From assembly GCA_002411015.1 (NCBI GenBank), contig DHPY01000075.1, positions 28,307 to 92,306 on the forward strand: a DNA stretch of 64,000 bases, given 5' to 3'. The position numbers and the translations under genes are program-made. Origin of the DNA: Armatimonadetes bacterium UBA5352 (GTDB lineage Bacteria; Armatimonadota; Zipacnadia; Zipacnadales; UBA5352). Under the pieces are notes generated by a model that was not told the DNA's origin, made no database searches, and worked only from the letters and a program-made list of their open reading frames with translations. This document shows, piece after piece, positions 15,946-48,871 of this stretch; position 1 is the first letter of the stretch; each line of letters opens with the position of its first letter.

Positions 15946-16023
15946 CGCGGTTGGTGCTTATTCCACTGGGGCGGCGCGCGATAGGATCGGGGGACTCAGG
16001 GGTGGAAGTCAGGTTCAGCGCAT

Positions 16024-16380
16024 CTACACGTCGCAGAGCGCGCTGATGTTCGAGTACCACCGGTTTCTTGCCTTGGCGACATCCGCCTCGGTGATCTGTG
16101 TCCCGGCTTCGTAGCGAGCCTGACGAGCCAACTGCTCCAGCGCGAGATACTCCCGGAGGATTAGGTTGAGATGCTGCGCAACCGCTTTTCTGCGCGCAGC
16201 GTGATCCGGGGGGTGAACGCCATGGTTTGCGAGTTTGGCATCCACTAAGTGCAGTGCGGCATAGTAGACTGCAATGGCTTCCCAGTCACAGAAATCCGCA
16301 GCATTCAGTGTATCCCGCACATGCCTGCTGAAAGCCTCGTCATGCTCTGCCTTCTGCGCGTGCTGGTTCCGGGTCGGCAT
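16024..16380 (-). CDS. HEPN-like domain protein (118 aa), third gene of the islet cassette
   Basis: All-helical pattern. Rx5H motif RKAVAQH near the C-terminal half, as in HEPN RNase motifs (Rx4-6H). Start 10 nt after the upstream gene stop. Confidence 0.4.
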   Translation of the reverse strand: MPTRNQHAQKAEHDEAFSRHVRDTLNAADFCDWEAIAVYYAALHLVDAKLANHGVHPPDHAARRKAVAQHLNLILREYLALEQLARQARYEAGTQITEADVAKARNRWYSNISALCDV

Positions 16381-16390
16381 CGGTTGCCCC

Positions 16391-16963
16391 CTATGATGAC
16401 TGCAGCCTGAAACTGGTGCCCCTCTGGCCCACAGTCACCTGTCGCGCCTCAGGGTCACCCTCGTGGGCAATGACAAACTCGGCGCGGAGGTCAGGGAAAA
16501 TGTCATAGAGAGCTGCGGCCCGACCGAACACATCCTCCCAGAGATCGAGGTCCCGCTCCTCGATCACAACAACTATCCGGACTTGACCTCCGTCGTCGAA
16601 CGCGCCCCCCCCAACCACTCGTGGCAGCCCGCCAAGCAGTCGCATCAGGTGCCCGGCGACGAGGCTGGGACTGGGATTACTGATCGTGCGGGGCACGAAG
16701 CTCGGCCATTGACTGCAGAGGTCAAGTTCGCTGTCTGCCGGGAACTCCAACGGAACGCACGGCGCGATGCGTTGGAGGGCAGACCAGCAGTCCGCCAAGT
16801 CCAAAGCCTGCTCCATGTCGTCCTCGTAGAACGCGGTCGCCCGTGGTGCACTGCCAGCCCGCTGTTCCGCGAGTGTGCAGAATACCATCTCCTTAGGCAA
16901 CCGAAGGGCATCTTGGAGGAAATCCAGCACGAGCGTCTCGTCCATGCGGTCAGCTATGTTCAT
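16391..16963 (-). CDS. Hypothetical protein B (190 aa), middle gene of the islet cassette; start ATG overlaps the upstream stop (ATGA)
   Basis: Minus-strand ATGA at plus 16960-16963 couples it to gene A. No recognisable motifs (G-rich stretch VVGGGAFDDGGQVRIVVVIEERDLD). The ORF track offers a longer version to 17029. Confidence 0.4.
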   Translation of the reverse strand: MNIADRMDETLVLDFLQDALRLPKEMVFCTLAEQRAGSAPRATAFYEDDMEQALDLADCWSALQRIAPCVPLEFPADSELDLCSQWPSFVPRTISNPSPSLVAGHLMRLLGGLPRVVGGGAFDDGGQVRIVVVIEERDLDLWEDVFGRAAALYDIFPDLRAEFVIAHEGDPEARQVTVGQRGTSFRLQSS

Positions 16964-17631
16964 CTTCCATGCGCTCCCTCTACCAGAGATCTCGCGACCT
17001 CTTCGGAAAACTCCCAGGTTCCGCGCCAACCAGCCAACGCCTCCACGACATCGGCCCGAGCGTTCTCACTGCCTGGAACGTGATGGAAGTTAAACTGACA
17101 CTGCAGAGCAGTCGTTGGTCCGTCACCATCCGTGTCCTGCTGGGGCTTGATCGTCAGATGGACGCGGAAGACACCAAATTCCCTCTCGACATAGCTGCCG
17201 AAAGCCGAGGAGGCGTCGGGGAAATGGGCGACGAGTGGTGACCCTTCAGGCAGGAACAGCGAGCGCAGGATGTCGGGGCTGAAGGCTTCTCCACCCTCCA
17301 TCCCGCATTCCCACACGCTGTTGATACCGGCACTAGTCGGGTTCACGTCCTGGGGCAGGGCCTTCACGAGAGCGCTCCCGATGGCCATCGCTCGGTCAAC
17401 CGCTGGCTCGCTTGCGTCGCGCGCCGTAACCTGCAGTCGGTCGTCCGTGACGAAGAGACTGATGAGATCTGTGCGAAGTGCAGCGACCACGGGGGCGAAG
17501 ATTTTGTTCTCCGCCTCCGCCAGTTCCGCAGGCGAAAACAGACCGTTTGACGCCAGCCAGAGGGCATCCAGACGAGCGGGGCGGAAGTCATTCGCCCTCA
17601 CCACGACGTTCGCGGACTTTGGCGCCAACAT
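16960..17631 (-). CDS. Hypothetical protein A (223 aa), first gene of the islet cassette
   Basis: Strong RBS GGGAGGA 7 nt upstream of ATG at 17631 (MLAPKSANVVV...). The longer ORF-track version starts at a TTG at 17682. No recognisable domain. Confidence 0.4.
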   Translation of the reverse strand: MLAPKSANVVVRANDFRPARLDALWLASNGLFSPAELAEAENKIFAPVVAALRTDLISLFVTDDRLQVTARDASEPAVDRAMAIGSALVKALPQDVNPTSAGINSVWECGMEGGEAFSPDILRSLFLPEGSPLVAHFPDASSAFGSYVEREFGVFRVHLTIKPQQDTDGDGPTTALQCQFNFHHVPGSENARADVVEALAGWRGTWEFSEEVARSLVEGAHGR

Positions 17632-39954: not shown

Positions 39955-41625
39955 ATGTCCGCGATACAGATGCCTGAGATCTGGGGCGACGGGAAGCTCC
40001 TCACTTTCTCCGGGCTGGACGGTGCGACAAGCTGGTCGAACACACTCGTGGGCGGCGCGACCTCCGACCCGCTGGGGATCGTGCTGCACCTCAGGCCGGA
40101 CGTGCAGGTGATCTTCGGCGGAAAGCTGCAGGAGCAGAGCGGCCTCGTGCTGGGCGACGCGGTAGATGCGTCGGTCACTACCTCTGACGGTTCAGGCGAC
40201 CTCAGGTTCGCCTTCCGCGATTGCTGGACGATCGTTGGCGAGGTCACCGGCAACCTGACTGTCCGCCTGGATGGGCTGTCAGAGGCTGAGGCGGGCTTCG
40301 TCACGCTACTGAGCGAGCAGACCCTTGACGGCACGCGCTGGTGCATCGCGCTTTCGGCGGATTCGGCTGAGGGAGCCGCACAGCGCGCCGCAGACGCGAT
40401 CGGAGCCGACCTGGACGCGCTGATCGAGGCGCGCAGCAGCTTCGCCCGGAGCGTAGAGCCTGCTGGCGACGAGCGCACCTACCGCAAGTGCGCGGAGGTG
40501 CTCAAGCTCAACGCTCGTGCGCCGGAGGGGCGGATCGGGCGCCGCTGGACCACGCCCGACGTCTGGCCGCACCGGCACATGTGGCTGTGGGACTCGGCTT
40601 TCCACGCCATCGGCTGGCGTGAGCTTGACGGGGAGATGGCGCAGGACACGGTCCTCGCGGTGATTGAGCTGCAGGAGGCTGACGGGAAGATCCACCTGTG
40701 CGATGCGCCGCAGCGGCAGAACCAGCGGCACACGCAGCCGCCGGTCCTCGCCTGGAGCGCATGGCGCGTCTTCGAGGCCACGCGCGACGAGCAGTTCCTG
40801 CGCGCGTGCTACGGCCCGCTCGGGCGGTTCATGGACTGGCTCTTCGCGAACCGCGACGTCAACGGCAACGGGCTGCTGGAGTGGCTGAAGGAGTTCCATG
40901 TCGAGCGCTGCCGCTGCGGCGAGTCCGGCTGGGACAACTCCCCCCGCTTCGATCGCGAGATCATTGACGATCATGTGGACATCAACGCGATGGTTGTGCG
41001 GGAGATGCAGTTCCTCGCGCAGATGGCTGAGGTGCTGGGCGAGCGGAGCGACTGGCAGCAGCGCGCCGATGATCTCGCGGGGCTCGTCAACGAGCGCCTG
41101 TGGCACGAGGAGATCGGTCTGTACTTCGACCGCGGCCCCGGTGAGGACCCGTCGGAGTGGATGACGATGAAGTCGGGCGCGTGCCTCCTGCCGATGATCG
41201 CCGGGATCCCGAGCGAGGAGCAGGCGCGGCGGATGGTCGAGCAGCATCTCACGAACGAGAGCGAGTTCTGGGGCGCGACGCCGGTGCCGACGGTGGCCTT
41301 CGACGAGCCGCAGTATGATGACGACATGTGGCGCGGGCCAACATGGATGAACATCAACTTCCTGATCTGGGAGGGCCTCCGACGCTACGGCTTCGACGAC
41401 GTGGCGACCGAGCTGCGGAAGCGCTCGATGGAGGCGATCGAGCACTGGTACACGGGTGTGGGCGCGCCGCTGGGCGGGATCTTCGAGTACTACGACCCCG
41501 CGCGTGAGACGCACCCGTTCTGGCTGCACCGCAAGGGCGGCCAGTGCGGCGTAGGCGGAATCTCGGTCATCCGCGACTACGGCTGGACCGCCGCGACGTA
41601 TATCGGGTGGGCGAAGGGAAAGTAG
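39955..41625 (+). CDS. (alpha/alpha)6-barrel glycoside hydrolase, GH63-like (mannosyl-oligosaccharide glucosidase / YgjK / MGH family)
   Basis: WLWDSAFHAIG motif, LLEWLKE..., FWGATPVPTVAFDEPQYDDDMWRGPTWMNINFLI, typical of the GH63/GH37 six-hairpin fold. The ORF-track start 39115 overlaps opposite-strand genes, so ATG 39955 was chosen. Confidence 0.55.
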   Translation: MSAIQMPEIWGDGKLLTFSGLDGATSWSNTLVGGATSDPLGIVLHLRPDVQVIFGGKLQEQSGLVLGDAVDASVTTSDGSGDLRFAFRDCWTIVGEVTGNLTVRLDGLSEAEAGFVTLLSEQTLDGTRWCIALSADSAEGAAQRAADAIGADLDALIEARSSFARSVEPAGDERTYRKCAEVLKLNARAPEGRIGRRWTTPDVWPHRHMWLWDSAFHAIGWRELDGEMAQDTVLAVIELQEADGKIHLCDAPQRQNQRHTQPPVLAWSAWRVFEATRDEQFLRACYGPLGRFMDWLFANRDVNGNGLLEWLKEFHVERCRCGESGWDNSPRFDREIIDDHVDINAMVVREMQFLAQMAEVLGERSDWQQRADDLAGLVNERLWHEEIGLYFDRGPGEDPSEWMTMKSGACLLPMIAGIPSEEQARRMVEQHLTNESEFWGATPVPTVAFDEPQYDDDMWRGPTWMNINFLIWEGLRRYGFDDVATELRKRSMEAIEHWYTGVGAPLGGIFEYYDPARETHPFWLHRKGGQCGVGGISVIRDYGWTAATYIGWAKGK

Positions 41626-41638
41626 CGGCAGGAGGACT

Positions 41639-41700
41639 TGTTGCGGAAAAGCACAATGTTGCGCATATGAGCAACATGGGGTATAGTGGCAACATGAGAC
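41639..41700. repeat. Palindromic repeat cluster (ATGTTGC-n8-GCAACAT; additional GCAACAT copy) at 5' flank of frameshifted gene
   Basis: caATGTTGCgcatatgaGCAACATggggtatagtgGCAACATgag read directly. Related to the cluster at 42293-42355. Confidence 0.45.
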
Positions 41701-42295
41701 ACAAGCAGGCGCTCTCTCAGGTGCGACGGGTGCTGGAAGAGGTCCTGCGGACCTCAGTCAGGGAGATCTCGCCAGCACGAATCGACGGGTGTGAACCGGA
41801 CGCTCTGTTCCAGGCGTCGGGCCGCGAGTTTGTGGTCGAATACGAAGTGGACGCCTCGGCGGATCTGGTGGGTAGAGCCGCCTCGCTACTGCGGCATGTT
41901 CGGCGTGAGCGGCCTGACGCGGTACCCCTGGTCGTCGTTCCCTTTATGGGTGAGGTTGGTAAACGACTGTGCGAGGAAGCGGGCATCTCCTGGCTCGATC
42001 TGTCTGGCAACGCCAGCATTCGCGCCGCTGGTCTAGAAGTACGGATCGAGGGGTCGCCTAACGCCTACGCCCGCCCGGGGCGTCCCAAGAGCCTCTTCTC
42101 ACAGAGGCCCTGCGCCCGCTACTGGACGATCCGGATGCGTGCGAAGCGATGCGATGGCTTGAGGAGGATTACGCCACCATCGATAGCATAGGGCCGATGC
42201 GTCTGGCGGACTTTCAATCCAGAGCGGCCGATGACGAAGCACAGGGCGAGGCTTGGGCTCTCGTCCGCGAGCTTCTGCGTCGCCTCGAGATCTGA
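41667..42295 (+). pseudogene. Hypothetical protein gene (about 209 aa) with a -1 frameshift in a C/G homopolymer region (about 42062-42100), in a lower-GC islet
   Basis: Frame-2 ORF MSNMGYSGNMRHKQ...GSPNAYARPG... ends at 42191. Protein-like text continues in frame 1 (...PLLTEALRPLLDDPDACEAMRWLEEDYATIDSIGPMRLADFQSRAADDEAQGEAWALVRELLRRLEI, stop 42293-42295). Shift point near ccgcccgggg. Confidence 0.4.
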
Positions 42296-42355
42296 ATTGT
42301 TGCGCGAATCCCCATGCTGCGCATACGCGCAACATAGTGGATTTCAGCAACAGAG
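42293..42355. repeat. Palindromic repeat cluster (TTGTTGCGCG-n19-CGCGCAACAT) at 3' flank of frameshifted gene
   Basis: gaaTTGTTGCGCGaatccccatgctgcgcataCGCGCAACATagtgg. Shares TGCGCATA...GCAACAT...AGTGG...CAACA with the 5' flank. Confidence 0.45.
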
Positions 42356-42356
42356 G

Positions 42357-45275
42357 CTATTCTCCCACCGCCACCAGCTCCACGTCATCCACCCACACGG
42401 TGCCGGTGCCGTGCATGAGGTTCAGGTAGATGTGGAGCTGGTCGGCGGTCGGGTGGATGTCCTCCAGAACCAGCTCCCGCCACAGCCCCTCGGTGTTCGG
42501 CATGTTCAGCGCCATCGTCGGCTCCTGGCCGCCCTTCAGCCAAACCGCGAGCGTGCCCGCGAAGTCGTCGGTCGTGCGCGCCCAGAGCCGCAGCCGGTAT
42601 GTCTTCGCCTGATCGACCGGCCCTATCTCGCGATGCCATCTCCCCCACGCCCGGGTGGCGTATGCCTGCTCATCCTCCGCCGGCCCGAGCGCGCTGCAGG
42701 TCATCATCGCACAGGCATTTGCGGTGCGCGCGCCCTCAGTCGTGATCTCGAACTCGAAGTCGCCGATCTGCCGGTGCGGCAGCCAGGCCCCGGCGCCCTC
42801 CTCGAAGCCGCCGTCCGGGATGAGGTTCGCGCCCTGCTCCGCCTCGGGCTCTGGTACTGCGATCCACACCGGGCGCCAGATTCCGCCCGCGCCGGCGCTG
42901 TCCTCGACGCGCACGGCGAGCACGTTGGCCTCGCCCGGCCTGGCGACGTCCGTGATGTCCACCTCGAACGGCTTCTTCCACGACTCCGTATCGCCCTCAA
43001 ACGGGTAGGGCCGATCGAGCAGCCTCGTGCCGTTGACCCAGACCGTGCAGGCCTCGTCCACCGCGCCGAAGATCAGCCGCACGCGCCCGGCGCCCTCCGG
43101 CACCGTGAAGCTCGTGCGATACCACGCGAGGCCGTCGTAGTCGGTGGCATGCTCCTCACGCCACTGCCGCCCGGCCGCCAGTTCCTCCCACGAAGCGCTG
43201 ACCTCGGTCTCCGCCCAGCCGCCATCGCCGAACTCCTCCGCGAACCACTGCTGCTCCTCCCCCACACCGTCGGGGTCGAAGGCGAAGCACCACGGCCCGG
43301 GAAGCTGCTCGCCCGGCTGCGCGATGAGCTTCAGTAACTCGCGGTCCCACGTGTACCTCTCGCTCCAGGCGAGGTAGGCCATGTTGCAGACGAACTCGTC
43401 CTCGATGGAGGCGCGGAAGTCATCAAGCGCGGTGAGCGCATCGCGATACGGCGCGATGGCTCCGCTCTGGCGGTAGGCCTCGTAGACGCGCTGCACCTCA
43501 AGCGACATGCGCGCGTTCTGCAGGCCCTTGCGCAGCCACTGCACGCGCGCGAGCGCCACCGCGTCGTCAGCCGCGGCCGCCTCGGCGCTCGCGAGGAGCG
43601 CATCGCCTCGCGCGAATGCCTCCGGGGTGAAGATGACATCGCACTCGCGGTAGAAGTAGGACCAGTGCATCCCCGCCGGCCGCTCTGTGACCACATCGCA
43701 GACGGCGTCCCAGTGGTCGAAGTAGGCGCGCACCTCCTCGGCCGCCGGGCCGAAGGCGCTGTAGAACTCCCCGAGGACCTCCTCGACCGTGAGGTCCGGG
43801 CGCGCCGTCAGCCGCGCGAGCACGTAGAGATTCGGACCCTGCGTAGCGCACTGCCCGGTGAGCGAGTCGAAGTCAGTGGCGATCATCCCGTTCCCCGCGC
43901 AGTGGCGCATGTGCGCGCCGATCGTGTCCGCTGCGTACATTGGCATGGTGTGGCCGTCGAGCATGTAGTTCGGCCGCAGCATCATCTTTGCGCCGGTCGC
44001 AGCCCAGCCATCCCATTGGTCGAGCATCTCCTCGAGTTCGCCAGGGCCGCCGATGAGCCATCCGCCGGGCACGATGCCGATGTAGATGTGATCGTTCAGC
44101 TTCGTCTCGCGCGGCGGGAAGCGGTAGTTGCTGTAGGCGTAGCCGGTCACGACCGCCTCGGGATCGTGCTTTCGCGCCTCGGCCTGCACGGCGAGGAAGA
44201 AGCGCGCGTAGCGGTCGGAAAGGCTGCCGAGGAAGCGTATCCAGTCGCGATCGCCCGCCTCAAAGGCTGCGCGCGCGTGCTCCAGTCGCTCCTCCCACGG
44301 AACCTCGACGGCCGGATCCGGCACATCCCACGACAGGCAGCGCTCGCAGGTGCATTTCCCGGGAGTGTCGTTCTCGCTCGCATCAATGAAGGGGTCATCC
44401 GGAGTGCGCCTCGCCAGCCAGTCCTCGACGATCGCCTGATGGAAGGCAGGCTCGGAGACATCCATCGCCACGAGGTGCGCGGCACCTCCGTGGTAGGTGG
44501 GGTCGGAGCGGCGCGTGCCATCGGGAAGCAGGTTGAAGTACTCGGGGTGATCGGCGGAATAGCGATCCCACCATCCGGTGAAGGCGTGCGCCATGTCCAT
44601 GTTCACGCCGAGACCGAAGCGGTGCCTGCGCAGCCACCGCCCCTGCTCGGCAATCCAGCGGCTGCGGTTCTCCGGGTCGGCCCAGCCCTCGGTGCCTGCC
44701 ACCGTCGCTCCGCCATCCCGCCAGCGAGCGTGCACGAACGCCGGCTTGCCCGTGACGTCACGCGCGTCGAAGCTGATCTCCGCTCGCTGAGGCACGTCCT
44801 CCCCCAGCGGCCCCGGCCACAGCCAGCGCACACCAAGCTCGCGGTCGAGCAGGTCATACACCGCGAAGAGGGTGCCGACCTTCGTGCGGTTGGCGTGCTG
44901 GATGCCGCCCGGCTCGCCCTCGCTGTCGGTGCCGAGCAGGAAGAGGCGCTCCGCGTCTGCGCGGATGATGAAGCCGTTCGGCGACAGACCCTCTGTGCTG
45001 AGGCCCTCCTCCGCGGCAGCGCGTGCGGCGCCGATGTACACGCGCTGGCCATCGGCGGGCGCCTCCGCCTCGCGCACGACCGGAAGCTCTGCCCCGGTCG
45101 CGAGCCGCACGTGGTATGCAAGCTCATCGGCCGCCAACTGCTCGACCGGCAGGGGCTCGTCCGGCAGCACAATCGTGGCGACCGGCTGATGGTCCCGTAC
45201 AAGCTCCACGGCATCCGCGCCGAGCGCTGCCACGGTGATCGTCATGATAATCAGGCCGCTCCGCACACCACGCAC
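42357..45275 (-). CDS. Secreted multi-domain CAZyme-like protein (972 aa): DUF4838/GH20b-like N-region, GH2-N-type sugar-binding jelly roll, C-terminal CBM4_9-like module
   Basis: Signal peptide MRGVRSGLIIMTITVAALGADA. N-region YIGAARAAAEEGL...NGFIIRADAERLFLLGTDSEG. WYRTSFTVPEGAGRVRLIFGAVDEACTVWVNGTRL (Glyco_hydro_2_N-like). ANLIPDGGFEEGAGAW (CBM4_9-like). Confidence 0.5.
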   Translation of the reverse strand: MRGVRSGLIIMTITVAALGADAVELVRDHQPVATIVLPDEPLPVEQLAADELAYHVRLATGAELPVVREAEAPADGQRVYIGAARAAAEEGLSTEGLSPNGFIIRADAERLFLLGTDSEGEPGGIQHANRTKVGTLFAVYDLLDRELGVRWLWPGPLGEDVPQRAEISFDARDVTGKPAFVHARWRDGGATVAGTEGWADPENRSRWIAEQGRWLRRHRFGLGVNMDMAHAFTGWWDRYSADHPEYFNLLPDGTRRSDPTYHGGAAHLVAMDVSEPAFHQAIVEDWLARRTPDDPFIDASENDTPGKCTCERCLSWDVPDPAVEVPWEERLEHARAAFEAGDRDWIRFLGSLSDRYARFFLAVQAEARKHDPEAVVTGYAYSNYRFPPRETKLNDHIYIGIVPGGWLIGGPGELEEMLDQWDGWAATGAKMMLRPNYMLDGHTMPMYAADTIGAHMRHCAGNGMIATDFDSLTGQCATQGPNLYVLARLTARPDLTVEEVLGEFYSAFGPAAEEVRAYFDHWDAVCDVVTERPAGMHWSYFYRECDVIFTPEAFARGDALLASAEAAAADDAVALARVQWLRKGLQNARMSLEVQRVYEAYRQSGAIAPYRDALTALDDFRASIEDEFVCNMAYLAWSERYTWDRELLKLIAQPGEQLPGPWCFAFDPDGVGEEQQWFAEEFGDGGWAETEVSASWEELAAGRQWREEHATDYDGLAWYRTSFTVPEGAGRVRLIFGAVDEACTVWVNGTRLLDRPYPFEGDTESWKKPFEVDITDVARPGEANVLAVRVEDSAGAGGIWRPVWIAVPEPEAEQGANLIPDGGFEEGAGAWLPHRQIGDFEFEITTEGARTANACAMMTCSALGPAEDEQAYATRAWGRWHREIGPVDQAKTYRLRLWARTTDDFAGTLAVWLKGGQEPTMALNMPNTEGLWRELVLEDIHPTADQLHIYLNLMHGTGTVWVDDVELVAVGE

Positions 45276-45489
45276 AGCCGCTCACCTCACATGCACTCTG
45301 TGATTGCGCGGCGGAATTCGCCATGTACGGCACTCATGCCTCCACGTGAAGGTGCGGACGGGGCGGAGGCGAAACCACGCAGTGCGTACCGCATGAGGTT
45401 GACAGGCGACGACACCTGTCCTGCATCTGTTGATAGGCGAGGACGCCGGTTCTACATCTGATCCGGAGTATGCTTGCAGGGAGGGCGTA

Positions 45490-47052: not shown

Positions 47053-47068
47053 AAGGGTGAAAGGTGAG
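47041..47068 (-). repeat. Copy 3 (reverse orientation) of REP-like motif: reverse complement reads CCTCACCTTTCACCCTTTCACCCCACC
   Basis: Core TTCACCCTTTCACC. Overlaps the last codons of the GH3 gene and abuts the terminator hairpin. Confidence 0.45.
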
Positions 47069-47098
47069 GGGGGAACGGCGCGTTTGTGCCGTTCCCCC
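47069..47098. terminator. Perfect 11-bp hairpin GGGGGAACGGC-gcgtttgt-GCCGTTCCCCC between convergent GH3 and nuclease genes
   Basis: Stems are exact reverse complements. 16 nt after the GH3 stop and 9 nt after the minus-strand gene stop. Confidence 0.6.
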
Positions 47099-47106
47099 AC
47101 TTCCTC

Positions 47107-47910
47107 TCAGTCGTCGCCAGCCGCCGCGATGGCCTCCTCATCTTCCCTGCATTCAGCCTTCGCCGGTCGCCGCCTCAGCTGACGCGCCCCAGCTTTGCAG
47201 ACCCGACGACGTGCGTTCTCGGCCTCATCCCCCTCAAGGGTCTCACGCCGTAGCACTTCCTGAACGAGCTTCTCTCGTATCTCGTCGGTGTCCACCTTCA
47301 CGTCCGGGTTTACACGGCGCATCTCCCGCCGAATTGCCTTCAGTACTTCATCCGAGACAACAATGGCGGCAATCAGGTGACGGCTCGTCGCCTCATGATG
47401 GCAGACGAAGTCGTCGAGCACGTTCTTCTCGATGCCCTCGCGTGTCAACAGATAAAGAAGCTCCTGACAACCGCTCTGATTGGCAGAGATCTCCAACAGA
47501 TCAATCTCAGCTACCTGTCGAGCCTCAATCGGCTTCCCGAAAATCACCTGATAGACGCGCCACTTGACCCCGTTTGTCAGAATGACCCACTCGACGCCCT
47601 GGTTGGCTGCGTAGTCCAGCGCCTGCCTTATGTGGGTGTCTCTGAAGTCAGTGCCGATGGCTTTGATCTCGATGACGATGCGGATGACATCGGCAATCTT
47701 AATGACCAAATCGCAGTAGGTACCCCGAATTGAGTACTCTGAGGTGATCTCGGTGTACTTGTCGTACCCGAAGAGGTCGGCCAGCACGTCGGTCACTATC
47801 ACCACGGTATCCGACTCGTTGCAGTCCCGGGCGCGAGCGGAGTTCAGGATGGGCTGGTACTGCTTCAACGCCGCTGTCATGCGCTGTGCGACTCTTGCAG
47901 GTATCGCCAT
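47107..47910 (-). CDS. Standalone restriction-endonuclease-fold (PD-(D/E)xK) protein resembling the type I restriction HsdR N-terminal nuclease domain (HSDR_N-like); lower-GC islet gene
   Basis: ITSEYSIRGTYCDLVIKIADVIRIVIEIKAIG carries the D...E-x-K catalytic pattern. Strong RBS GGGAGGG 7 nt upstream of ATG 47910. Visibly lower GC (about 52-55%). Charged C-terminal tail. Confidence 0.5.
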   Translation of the reverse strand: MAIPARVAQRMTAALKQYQPILNSARARDCNESDTVVIVTDVLADLFGYDKYTEITSEYSIRGTYCDLVIKIADVIRIVIEIKAIGTDFRDTHIRQALDYAANQGVEWVILTNGVKWRVYQVIFGKPIEARQVAEIDLLEISANQSGCQELLYLLTREGIEKNVLDDFVCHHEATSRHLIAAIVVSDEVLKAIRREMRRVNPDVKVDTDEIREKLVQEVLRRETLEGDEAENARRRVCKAGARQLRRRPAKAECREDEEAIAAAGDD

Positions 47911-48025
47911 GGAATGACCCTCCCGCAGCATGCGTCTGTACGTTCGTACGACGCAAGTCAGCGGAGGGTTCCCATTCTTGTCGTATATACCTCCATTGTG
48001 TTCCGCCCCCCGCCCAAAAAAGAAC

Positions 48026-48871
48026 CTACCACAACCCCGCGACCGCCGGGACTTCCGCGCGCTCCCTGAGGGTGATCGCGCCATTGCTGCAGGCGCTGCG
48101 GCAGACGCCGCAGCCGTAGCAGGCGCGCTGGTCCACCTCCACCTTCCGGTCCGCGGGAGTGAAGGTCAGCGCGCCAAACTGGCAGAGCCGCATACAGGAG
48201 CGGCAGCCCGTGCAGAGGTCCGGGTCCACCTCCGCCACATACTCCGCCCGCCACATGACCTTCAGGTCATGCACGACCGTAGACTGCATCGCGAGGCAGC
48301 TCTGCCGATCGCAGTTGCAGATGCCGCCGATGTAGGGCGTCCTGAAGGTCCAGACCGTGTGGCAGAGGCCATCCTTCTCATGCTCGGCGAAGGCGGCGGT
48401 CGCCTCCTCCGCGGTCAGTTCGTCATACTCATGCGTGTCCGGCCCGTGGAGGAAGCTCGAGTCTATCTCCTCCATCAGCTTCCCCGCCTCGCCGAGGTGA
48501 GGGGCCATCGAGATCGCGTAGCAGTAGCCGACGTCGCGCCCGAGGGTGCCGCGCCGGCAGATGCAGGCGATCCTGGCGATCGAGTTCAGGAAGCCGAAGA
48601 TCGTCTCGATCTCCTCCAGCGGCACCACCTGCCCGTAGTGCTGCTTCTTCATCCGCCGCGTGATGGCGGCCTTCGCCATCCGCTGGATGAAGCCCGGCGT
48701 GCGGTCAAGCTTCTCCATCATCGGGATGGCTCGCCCGGTCTCCTCCGGCTTTCCGAGAAAGCCCTCGATGAATCTGCGCCGCCGCAGGTCGCTCATGAGG
48801 TTCTCGGAGTAGTTCTTCGCCTGCAGATACCACTTCTTCCCGTCACCGTGCTGCGCGCAGAACTGGCACAT
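48026..48871 (-). CDS. Multi-cluster iron-sulfur protein with C-terminal 2x[4Fe-4S] ferredoxin domain; function unknown
   Basis: CTGCRSCMRLC and CYGCGVCRSAC ferredoxin motifs, plus additional Cys clusters (MCQFCAQHG, CICRRG...C, CNCDRQSC). Confidence 0.5.
   Translation of the reverse strand: MCQFCAQHGDGKKWYLQAKNYSENLMSDLRRRRFIEGFLGKPEETGRAIPMMEKLDRTPGFIQRMAKAAITRRMKKQHYGQVVPLEEIETIFGFLNSIARIACICRRGTLGRDVGYCYAISMAPHLGEAGKLMEEIDSSFLHGPDTHEYDELTAEEATAAFAEHEKDGLCHTVWTFRTPYIGGICNCDRQSCLAMQSTVVHDLKVMWRAEYVAEVDPDLCTGCRSCMRLCQFGALTFTPADRKVEVDQRACYGCGVCRSACSNGAITLRERAEVPAVAGLW

Follow-up and report, generated by a model that had tools for sequence, protein, structure and literature searches.

What is a lone, low-GC nuclease gene doing in the middle of a locus devoted to polysaccharide utilisation? 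The question is raised by a 64,000-nt stretch of contig DHPY01000075.1 from Armatimonadetes bacterium UBA5352 (hereafter the window, meaning the whole stretch analysed), in which a coding sequence (CDS) at 47107..47910 on the minus strand specifies a solitary nuclease of 267 aa plus stop. An earlier note on this DNA had read the gene as an acquired, HsdR-like nuclease and had left its purpose between defence, a toxin–antitoxin (TA) component and DNA repair. The best explanation of our results is that it encodes a self-contained, catalytically competent endonuclease of the HsdR-N/type IIG branch of the PD-(D/E)xK superfamily, with DNA as its presumed substrate; furthermore, we hold with moderate confidence that this is a mobile, single-gene nuclease directed against phages or other mobile DNA, which works independently of any methyltransferase. 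For this genome the finding is modest, namely the horizontal insertion of one gene into a conserved locus for polysaccharide utilisation, proved by empty sites. The wider value lies at the family level: a conserved solitary nuclease, a C-terminal domain that is an orphan in fold, and a recurrent seat beside prophage repressors.

The gene call itself is secure. Translation starts at the ATG at 47910, preceded by a Shine-Dalgarno (SD) sequence GGGAGGG (47918..47924, minus strand) with a 7-nt spacer, confirming the minus-strand gene and ribosome-binding site that had been proposed. A longer mechanical open reading frame (ORF) runs up to 48084, its extension reaching into the 3'-terminal part of the Fe-S gene that lies upstream; the N-terminus MAIPARVAQR agrees with the family consensus MAxIPxKVAxR, and the same start is found in all homologues aligned. 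The low GC content, previously judged by eye, is now computed: 0.58 for the gene versus a window mean of 0.672 (sd 0.025, z = -3.6), the 12 804-nt bins poorest in GC across the 64 kb all overlapping the gene, and GC at third codon positions (GC3) of 0.72 versus 0.82–0.92 in nine neighbouring genes. The protein is already public, being identical to GenBank HCA46852.1, a 'restriction endonuclease subunit R' from an Armatimonadota metagenome-assembled genome (MAG).

We examined the N-terminal PD-(D/E)xK nuclease domain (residues 1–140; 47491..47910, minus strand), which has the order helix-helix-beta-beta-beta-helix-beta-beta-beta and contains the motif ...YCDLVIK...IEIKAIG.... An alignment of 39 sequences revealed that D67 in strand 2 and E81-I-K83 at the end of strand 3 are invariant (catalytic codons at 47710-47712 for D67, 47668-47670 for E81 and 47662-47664 for K83, all on the minus strand), bearing out the D-x(n)-E-x-K core that had been read from the translation. 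Also invariant in this alignment are E32, D34, E58, Q96, Y100 and an LTNG strand. E32 and D34 form part of an acidic NESDT motif, which the alignment and the structural model place at the start of helix 2 ('helix-1' in our feature list), and Q96-A-L-D-Y100 constitutes a QxxxY motif, invariant at both its Q and its Y, in the helix that follows the E-x-K strand. QxxxY is a motif shared by HsdR- and RecB-type nucleases and is known from work on EcoR124I.

Profile searches agreed with this reading: Pfam HSDR_N_2 (PF13588) matched residues 54–122 with 31.6 bits against a gathering score of 25, and HSDR_N (PF04313) fell just under its threshold (24.4 versus 25.1). An NCBIfam search with the nuclease returned only sub-threshold matches, to segments of HsdR or of a type I methylase, and a single-protein sequence search of the Protein Data Bank (PDB) returned nothing useful. 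An AlphaFold2 model built on 39 homologues (predicted local distance difference test, pLDDT, 85.4; predicted template modelling score, pTM, 0.71) exhibited two long N-terminal helices, strands at 55–61, 64–72 and 75–82, a helix at 91–104 and strands at 108–112, 116–123 and 129–137, so that the alpha-beta-beta-beta-alpha-beta core of the superfamily is present in the predicted structure. The nearest structural neighbours were the Vibrio vulnificus HsdR fragment 3h1t and the type IIG enzyme BpuSI (score 12.0 each), followed by DrdV (10.8) and EcoR124I HsdR (9.3), with Cas4, Dna2, Hjc, NucS and others at 6–8; the leading Foldseek matches were the same. The resemblance to HSDR_N thus survived the Pfam and structure-prediction checks that the earlier note had recommended, with one profile over its cutoff, the sister profile just under it, and the N-terminal domain of HsdR among the nearest structures. 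We hold the fold assignment with high confidence. The catalytic domain falls in the HSDR_N/HSDR_N_2/COG2810 group, which Steczkiewicz et al. 2012 listed as 'type IV restriction endonuclease (predicted)' (PMC3424549).

We then compared the protein with known restriction systems. Its N-terminal nuclease domain is like that of type I HsdR (EcoR124I, 2w00; the V. vulnificus fragment, 3h1t); however, the protein has 267 aa where HsdR has about 800–1000, it comes with no SF2 translocase and no HsdM/HsdS (a search of the polypeptide for SF2 helicase domains gave no ResIII, DEAD or Helicase_C match), and it possesses a conserved helical C-terminal domain of its own that HsdR lacks. In contrast to the type IIG/IIL enzymes (BpuSI, 3s1s; DrdV, 7lo5; MmeI), it has no fused methyltransferase or target-recognition domain. 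Its surroundings are equally bare: no methyltransferase, specificity subunit, restriction endonuclease (REase) or helicase model matched any of the 44 window genes, Pfam annotation of the 8 kb on either side of the nuclease showed no restriction-modification partners, and neither the 115-nt upstream nor the 54-nt downstream spacer holds an ORF, hence no adjacent antitoxin gene. The solitary state claimed from the first inspection can therefore be stated with high confidence.

Like type IV enzymes such as Mrr, the nuclease stands alone with no cognate methylase, and it is mobile and patchily distributed; COG2810 carries the label 'predicted type IV restriction endonuclease' (PMC3424549). It differs from them in having no SRA, EVE, winged-helix (wH), iEndoIII or RAMA reader, and its catalytic domain is of the HsdR type rather than Mrr_cat. 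A comparison may also be drawn with the wH-fusion enzymes that depend on N6-methyladenine (m6A) (PMC11037411), which are type IV-like, the nuclease itself having no wH domain. Lacking a reader domain, the nuclease is a type IV-like candidate and not a demonstrated type IV enzyme. Solitary, methylase-less 'END' nucleases have recently been reported (PMC12191111). Kinship with these iEndoIII fusions was considered and rejected: neither Pfam nor the fold search with the C-terminal domain detected an EndoIII-like domain.

How the gene arrived became clear from its relatives. In the window the nuclease lies between a convergent GH3 glycosidase gene downstream and a same-strand gene for a 281-aa 4Fe-4S protein upstream, the position reported originally and upheld by Pfam annotation; farther out stand a GH29 fucosidase, a DUF2780 protein, an RGL11 rhamnogalacturonan lyase and a thioredoxin (Trx). 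Two related loci, L088 and L089, reached via a fucosidase annotated as Armatimonadota, have the same gene order (Trx, RGL11, GH29, Fe-S, GH3, GH63-like) with flanking genes 79–84% identical to the window at the nucleotide level, and in both of them only an unrelated 288-nt spacer, free of any nuclease gene, lies between Fe-S and GH3. Homology to the window ends at 48028 (the Fe-S stop) and 47049 (the GH3 end), and the 288-nt spacer is replaced by a lineage-specific segment of 973 nt at 47053..48025 (no strand assigned), which comprises a leader, the gene and a hairpin. Because the same GH29–FeS–GH3 synteny exists without the nuclease, this is a clean single-gene insertion, and we hold with high confidence that an Armatimonadota lineage acquired the gene horizontally, as a one-gene cassette. 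No target-site duplication or terminal repeats were found at the insertion, the repeats of the region being short and chance-like, and a tRNA/att-type integration site was considered and rejected, no tRNA genes being found in the 64-kb window. It is the empty sites that prove the acquisition suspected earlier; low GC is by itself weak evidence of recent acquisition, since it is a property of the whole family (at 70 of 75 loci the homologue has a lower GC than the DNA on either side, by a mean of 7.1 points).

L086, which is more closely related (GH29 93.5% identical), carries the nuclease and is missing the Fe-S gene, and a fourth relative, L090, shows yet another arrangement. Between the window and L086, its closest relative, the nuclease gene has a ratio of nonsynonymous to synonymous substitution rates (dN/dS) of 0.072, with 0.053 and 0.069 for its two domains, indicating that it is maintained by purifying selection as a whole and in both domains. 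Its synonymous divergence (dS 0.68) exceeds that of the neighbouring GH29 gene (0.29) by a factor of 2.3, which could reflect weaker codon bias or allelic replacement by a second transfer.

The family to which the gene belongs is large, well conserved and widely transferred. A word-indexed search yielded 3319 homologues at E <= 0.001, the best 120 of which are nearly all about 260–300 aa long and aligned over 83–100% of the query; an exhaustive profile search yielded 4279 cluster representatives at E <= 0.001, of which 491 reached E <= 1e-30. Relatives are encoded in at least 539 GTDB species genomes, and the 80 loci with the best scores are distributed over Acidobacteriota, Verrucomicrobiota, Pseudomonadota, Planctomycetota, Myxococcota, Chloroflexota, Cyanobacteriota, Bacillota, Nitrospirota and Gemmatimonadota, so that the family is spread across many phyla at 50–70% identity. 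Mean identity was 70.5% among members of one phylum and 63.4% across phyla, and for 11 of 79 the nearest neighbour belongs to a different phylum, figures that are subject to binning errors in MAGs.

These data bear directly on the possibility that the gene is a functionless orphan, left over from the decay of a type I HsdR or of a type IIG/IIL enzyme. Its automatic annotation as 'subunit R' and its nearest structures, which are the N-terminal domains of HsdR, BpuSI and DrdV, would fit such an origin. However, full-length homologues of ~270 aa number in the thousands and are built from the same two domains, both domains evolve at a dN/dS of about 0.05–0.07 with catalytic residues intact, the flanks hold no helicase or methyltransferase remnants, and the edges of the insertion are clean. 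Conservation and selection, together with the absence of any degraded hsdR, hsdM or hsdS beside the 80 loci, tell against it, and we treat this explanation as effectively refuted.

A survey of homologue neighbourhoods, which had been proposed as a check, revealed no conserved partner. All-versus-all clustering of the ORFs within 6 kb of the homologue in 80 genomes found no neighbour common to more than 11 of the 80 loci, and the top clusters were generic (histidine kinases at 11 loci, Ser/Thr kinases at 6, ABC ATPases at 6). The 139 immediate neighbours fall into 102 Pfam families, none present at more than 5 loci, and hsdM and hsdS do not recur among them. Median intergenic gaps around the homologues were 118 and 174 nt, with 10 of the 139 neighbours on the same strand within 40 nt. 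One side observation concerns a channel-like Ion_trans/Ion_trans_2 gene (~260 aa), which adjoins the homologue in about 6 unrelated loci (L004, 7982-8764, 12 nt upstream; L056, 1095-1871; L021; L038; L052; L054) and is the only specific recurrent neighbour of the family.

A housekeeping role was weighed against this distribution. The protein could be a repair or recombination nuclease that acts on structures in host DNA (flaps, junctions, ends) in the manner of Hjc, NucS or the RecB nuclease domains, and several observations are compatible with this: identity of 63% between phyla, strong purifying selection, housekeeping surroundings such as the U32 peptidases and FabB of Lysobacter, UvrD near the homologue in 4 loci, and a QxxxY motif common to RecB-type nucleases. 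Against it, close relatives differ in whether this one locus holds the gene; positions vary within the Lysobacteraceae (L002, L007/L030, L020/L077 and L021 differ in neighbours); the homologue consistently has a lower GC than its host; it is found, beside repressor and integrase genes, on prophages, plasmids and viral contigs; and its fusions are to restriction-associated, not repair, domains. Taken with these points, we judge a repair function improbable.

The association with mobile elements proved informative. The nuclease matches phrog_17239, a phage family of unknown function, nearly end to end (E 2.3e-86; residues 1–248 versus profile positions 2–249 of 259), and homologues are carried by at least 108 IMG/VR viral contigs and by six Leptospira weilii plasmids, in the latter amid TA genes and IS5 elements. 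At locus L175 the homologue adjoins a serine recombinase. We counted neighbours at 74 dereplicated viral loci: the upstream gene shares the strand of the homologue in 59 of 72 (median gap 54 nt) and is an HTH_3 protein in 17, a Peptidase_S24 protein in 12 and a Phage_CI_repr protein in 7 of 72, and an integrase or recombinase stands downstream in 11 of 70, made up of 7 tyrosine integrases and 4 serine recombinases. The sole cultured phage with a homologue (gp55, 38.7% identity) is the temperate Thermus phage Riverbug (PQ109080, 31115-31909), in which a LexA-like regulator, the homologue (5-nt gap, same strand), a periplasmic-domain protein and an integrase follow one another, with Cro/Xis-like genes divergent. 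The contig P0045 has the same repressor-then-nuclease layout.

Prophage exclusion genes beside a repressor are a known arrangement, lambda rexAB being one example. Lysogens express the genes of the repressor operon, and this position is a typical site of prophage defence and exclusion genes (PMC8585504, PMC6426596, PMC6426606); viral members of our family occupy the same position as BstA (PMC8585504) and the mycobacteriophage and Gordonia genes (PMC6426596, PMC6426606). Unlike BstA and Rex, the window copy lies outside any prophage, and the protein families are unrelated.

Viral carriage also admits the view that the gene serves the mobile element itself, as an accessory of lysogeny or induction, in degradation of competitor or host DNA, or in anti-defence, the window copy being a stranded remnant. 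The full-length match to phrog_17239, the viral contigs and the tight linkage to CI/LexA-type repressors and integrases speak for it. On the other hand, no phage genes lie near the window insert or near most of the 80 genomic loci, the singleton is intact and under purifying selection, and genes of the repressor operon are expressed in lysogens and are the seat of superinfection exclusion, lytic-cycle nucleases being located elsewhere. Such a role appears improbable to us, by a hair more so than repair.

Domain fusions point in the same direction as the prophage context. Longer family members bear an additional C-terminal RAMA, DUF4268 or DUF5655 domain or an N-terminal TerD domain, and RAMA is a predicted reader of modified bases found fused to restriction nucleases (PMC4738411). 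At a few loci the homologue adjoins nuclease or defence genes (Mrr_cat, SNase, HIRAN, a type IV REase), and contig P0093 is a clear defence island. The recurrence in prophage immunity regions, combined with the RAMA, DUF4268, DUF5655 and TerD fusions, suggests that the family context favours defence among the three purposes first envisaged, with TA and repair remaining as rivals.

In the window protein, the half of the molecule that might confer specificity is the conserved all-helical C-terminal domain (residues 141–246; 47173..47490, minus strand), which carries an RRE(L/M)RR..P motif, has R194, R195, E196, P202 and R222 invariant in the alignment, and is modelled as a helix bundle at 146–246. 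Only the final part (residues 247–267 plus stop; 47107..47172, minus strand) is a tail, charged, predicted to be disordered (pLDDT < 50) and variable in the alignment. What had been described as a charged helical tail is in fact, by alignment and pLDDT, a conserved helical domain of ~100 residues that ends in 21 disordered ones. Modelled alone, this domain gave no significant match to any PDB chain, those of the type IIG/IIL enzymes included.

We propose that the nuclease acts as follows. The N-terminal domain (E32/D34, D67, E81-x-K83, Q96xxxY100) would bind Mg2+ and cut DNA, and the helical C-terminal domain (RRExRR..P) would provide target discrimination, oligomerisation, or both. Host DNA would be spared because the enzyme responds to something peculiar to foreign DNA (modified bases, as with type IV enzymes, or free ends and replication structures) and not through methylation of the host's own DNA, and in this lineage translation would additionally be throttled by a leader hairpin hiding the SD sequence and the start codon. 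More tentatively, and with somewhat less assurance than for the defence role as such, we envisage a widespread single-gene anti-phage system that temperate phages carry in the immunity operon and seed as one-gene islets across phyla, the C-terminal domain possibly acting as a new sensor of self versus foreign DNA. What makes the finding of interest is the family of the window gene as a defence candidate, for which there is no PADLOC model; the protein had been deposited and the domain group described before.

Several observations weigh against this proposal. PADLOC-DB v2.0.0 gave no convincing match to the nuclease (best MTase_I, E 4.5e-4, 16.8 bits, over a nuclease-like segment only). Defence genes account for only a handful of the 139 chromosomal neighbours, so that enrichment in defence islands is not demonstrated, and in several genomes, for example Lysobacter concretionis, the homologue sits amid housekeeping genes. 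Identity of ~50% is retained across phyla, a very high conservation that is uncommon among defence genes, whose sequences tend to diverge quickly. No known modification reader is similar to the C-terminal domain, and nothing consequently supports modification dependence for this protein specifically. Finally, the searchable literature held no experimental test of any family member; a stand-alone 'HsdR N-terminal domain' protein is mentioned in PMC8713573, where its role is called unclear.

If the nuclease does protect against phage, it would enlarge the set of methyltransferase-less nucleases and raise the question of how host DNA is spared. As a single gene of ~0.8 kb with obvious catalytic mutants, it is a cheap candidate for defence-system screens.

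The leader mentioned above deserves a closer description. It is a hairpin of 67 nt (47909..47975, minus strand) that pairs the SD sequence and the first two bases of the AUG, with a minimum free energy of -36.8 kcal/mol (z -3.95). The L086 copy (about 1238-1307) folds equally well (z -4.49), and the well-aligned part of the leader differs from it by only two substitutions, even though the CDS has a dS of 0.68; one of these converts a predicted G-C pair to G-U, and the other falls at the U-G pair closing a small internal loop. The predicted structure hints that translation of the nuclease is tightly controlled in this lineage, a suggestion based on two sequences that offer no covariation. A family-wide regulator was considered and is ruled out: the mean z over 79 family loci is -0.13, the hairpin is confined to the window and L086 and missing from the next-closest homologues, and it has no Rfam match.

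Such a leader would also suit a gene whose product is dangerous to its host. The nuclease might be the toxic effector of an abortive-infection or addiction module, held off by translational sequestration, by an RNA or protein antidote or by auto-inhibition through the C-terminal domain, with a phage cue or loss of the element leading to death of the cell. In addition to the sequestered SD sequence and AUG and the few substitutions in the leader, this idea draws on the Leptospira plasmid region, which is rich in TA genes (PIN-like/DUF433, HigB, MazF) and has a 70-aa ORF 8 nt upstream of the homologue, and on the small HTH_3 genes that lie directly upstream in some viral loci. However, the 973-nt insert is too small for a second gene, a leader that sequesters the SD sequence is no family trait, and no neighbour is conserved in the 80 genomes. 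Furthermore, co-transcription with a CI-type repressor implies constitutive expression in lysogens, which is hard to square with an unrestrained toxin. We therefore consider a toxin unlikely, if slightly less so than a repair enzyme, and retain the anti-phage nuclease as the preferred explanation.

Downstream of the nuclease, between its stop codon and that of the convergent GH3 gene, lies a perfect GC-rich hairpin of 11 bp with an 8-nt loop (47069..47098, no strand assigned), of sequence GGGGGAACGGC-N8-GCCGTTCCCCC, which is unique in the window and of which 0 copies are expected by chance. It had been taken for a terminator shared by the two genes. The hairpin is indeed perfect, unique, shared and terminator-like in form; however, the terminator scan made no call at this position because there is no T-tract, and its role as an intrinsic terminator was accordingly not borne out. 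In L086 the GGGGGAACGGC hairpin flanks the nuclease on both sides (1048-1092 and about 2125-2140), versus one copy in the window (47058-47102), and this duplication may be the scar of a recombination or insertion event, or else a local element resembling repetitive extragenic palindromes (REP-like).

Some features of the surrounding locus were recorded in passing. The 90%-identity cluster that holds the 281-aa Fe-S protein of the window otherwise consists of alpha-L-fucosidases of about 420 aa, which has the look of an artefact of clustering, perhaps caused by a fused gene call, and not of biology. Isolated PADLOC matches occur on single genes elsewhere in the window (mad3, 1e-31; MzaA, 3e-20; BrxL, 3e-16; mad8; DolB), and these are probably housekeeping homologues, not complete systems. 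A second indel, at about 41626-45429 of the window between the GH63-like and GH3 genes, contains a low-GC 215-aa ORF (41544-42191; GC bin 0.613) without a Pfam or PADLOC match and a 972-aa DUF4838/GH2_N protein (42357-45275); in L088 and L089 only 58 nt separate the GH63-like gene from GH3. Another low-GC islet spans 16001-17600 (GC 0.61), and its ORF at 16394-17029 on the minus strand (GC3 0.70) may be another acquired gene.

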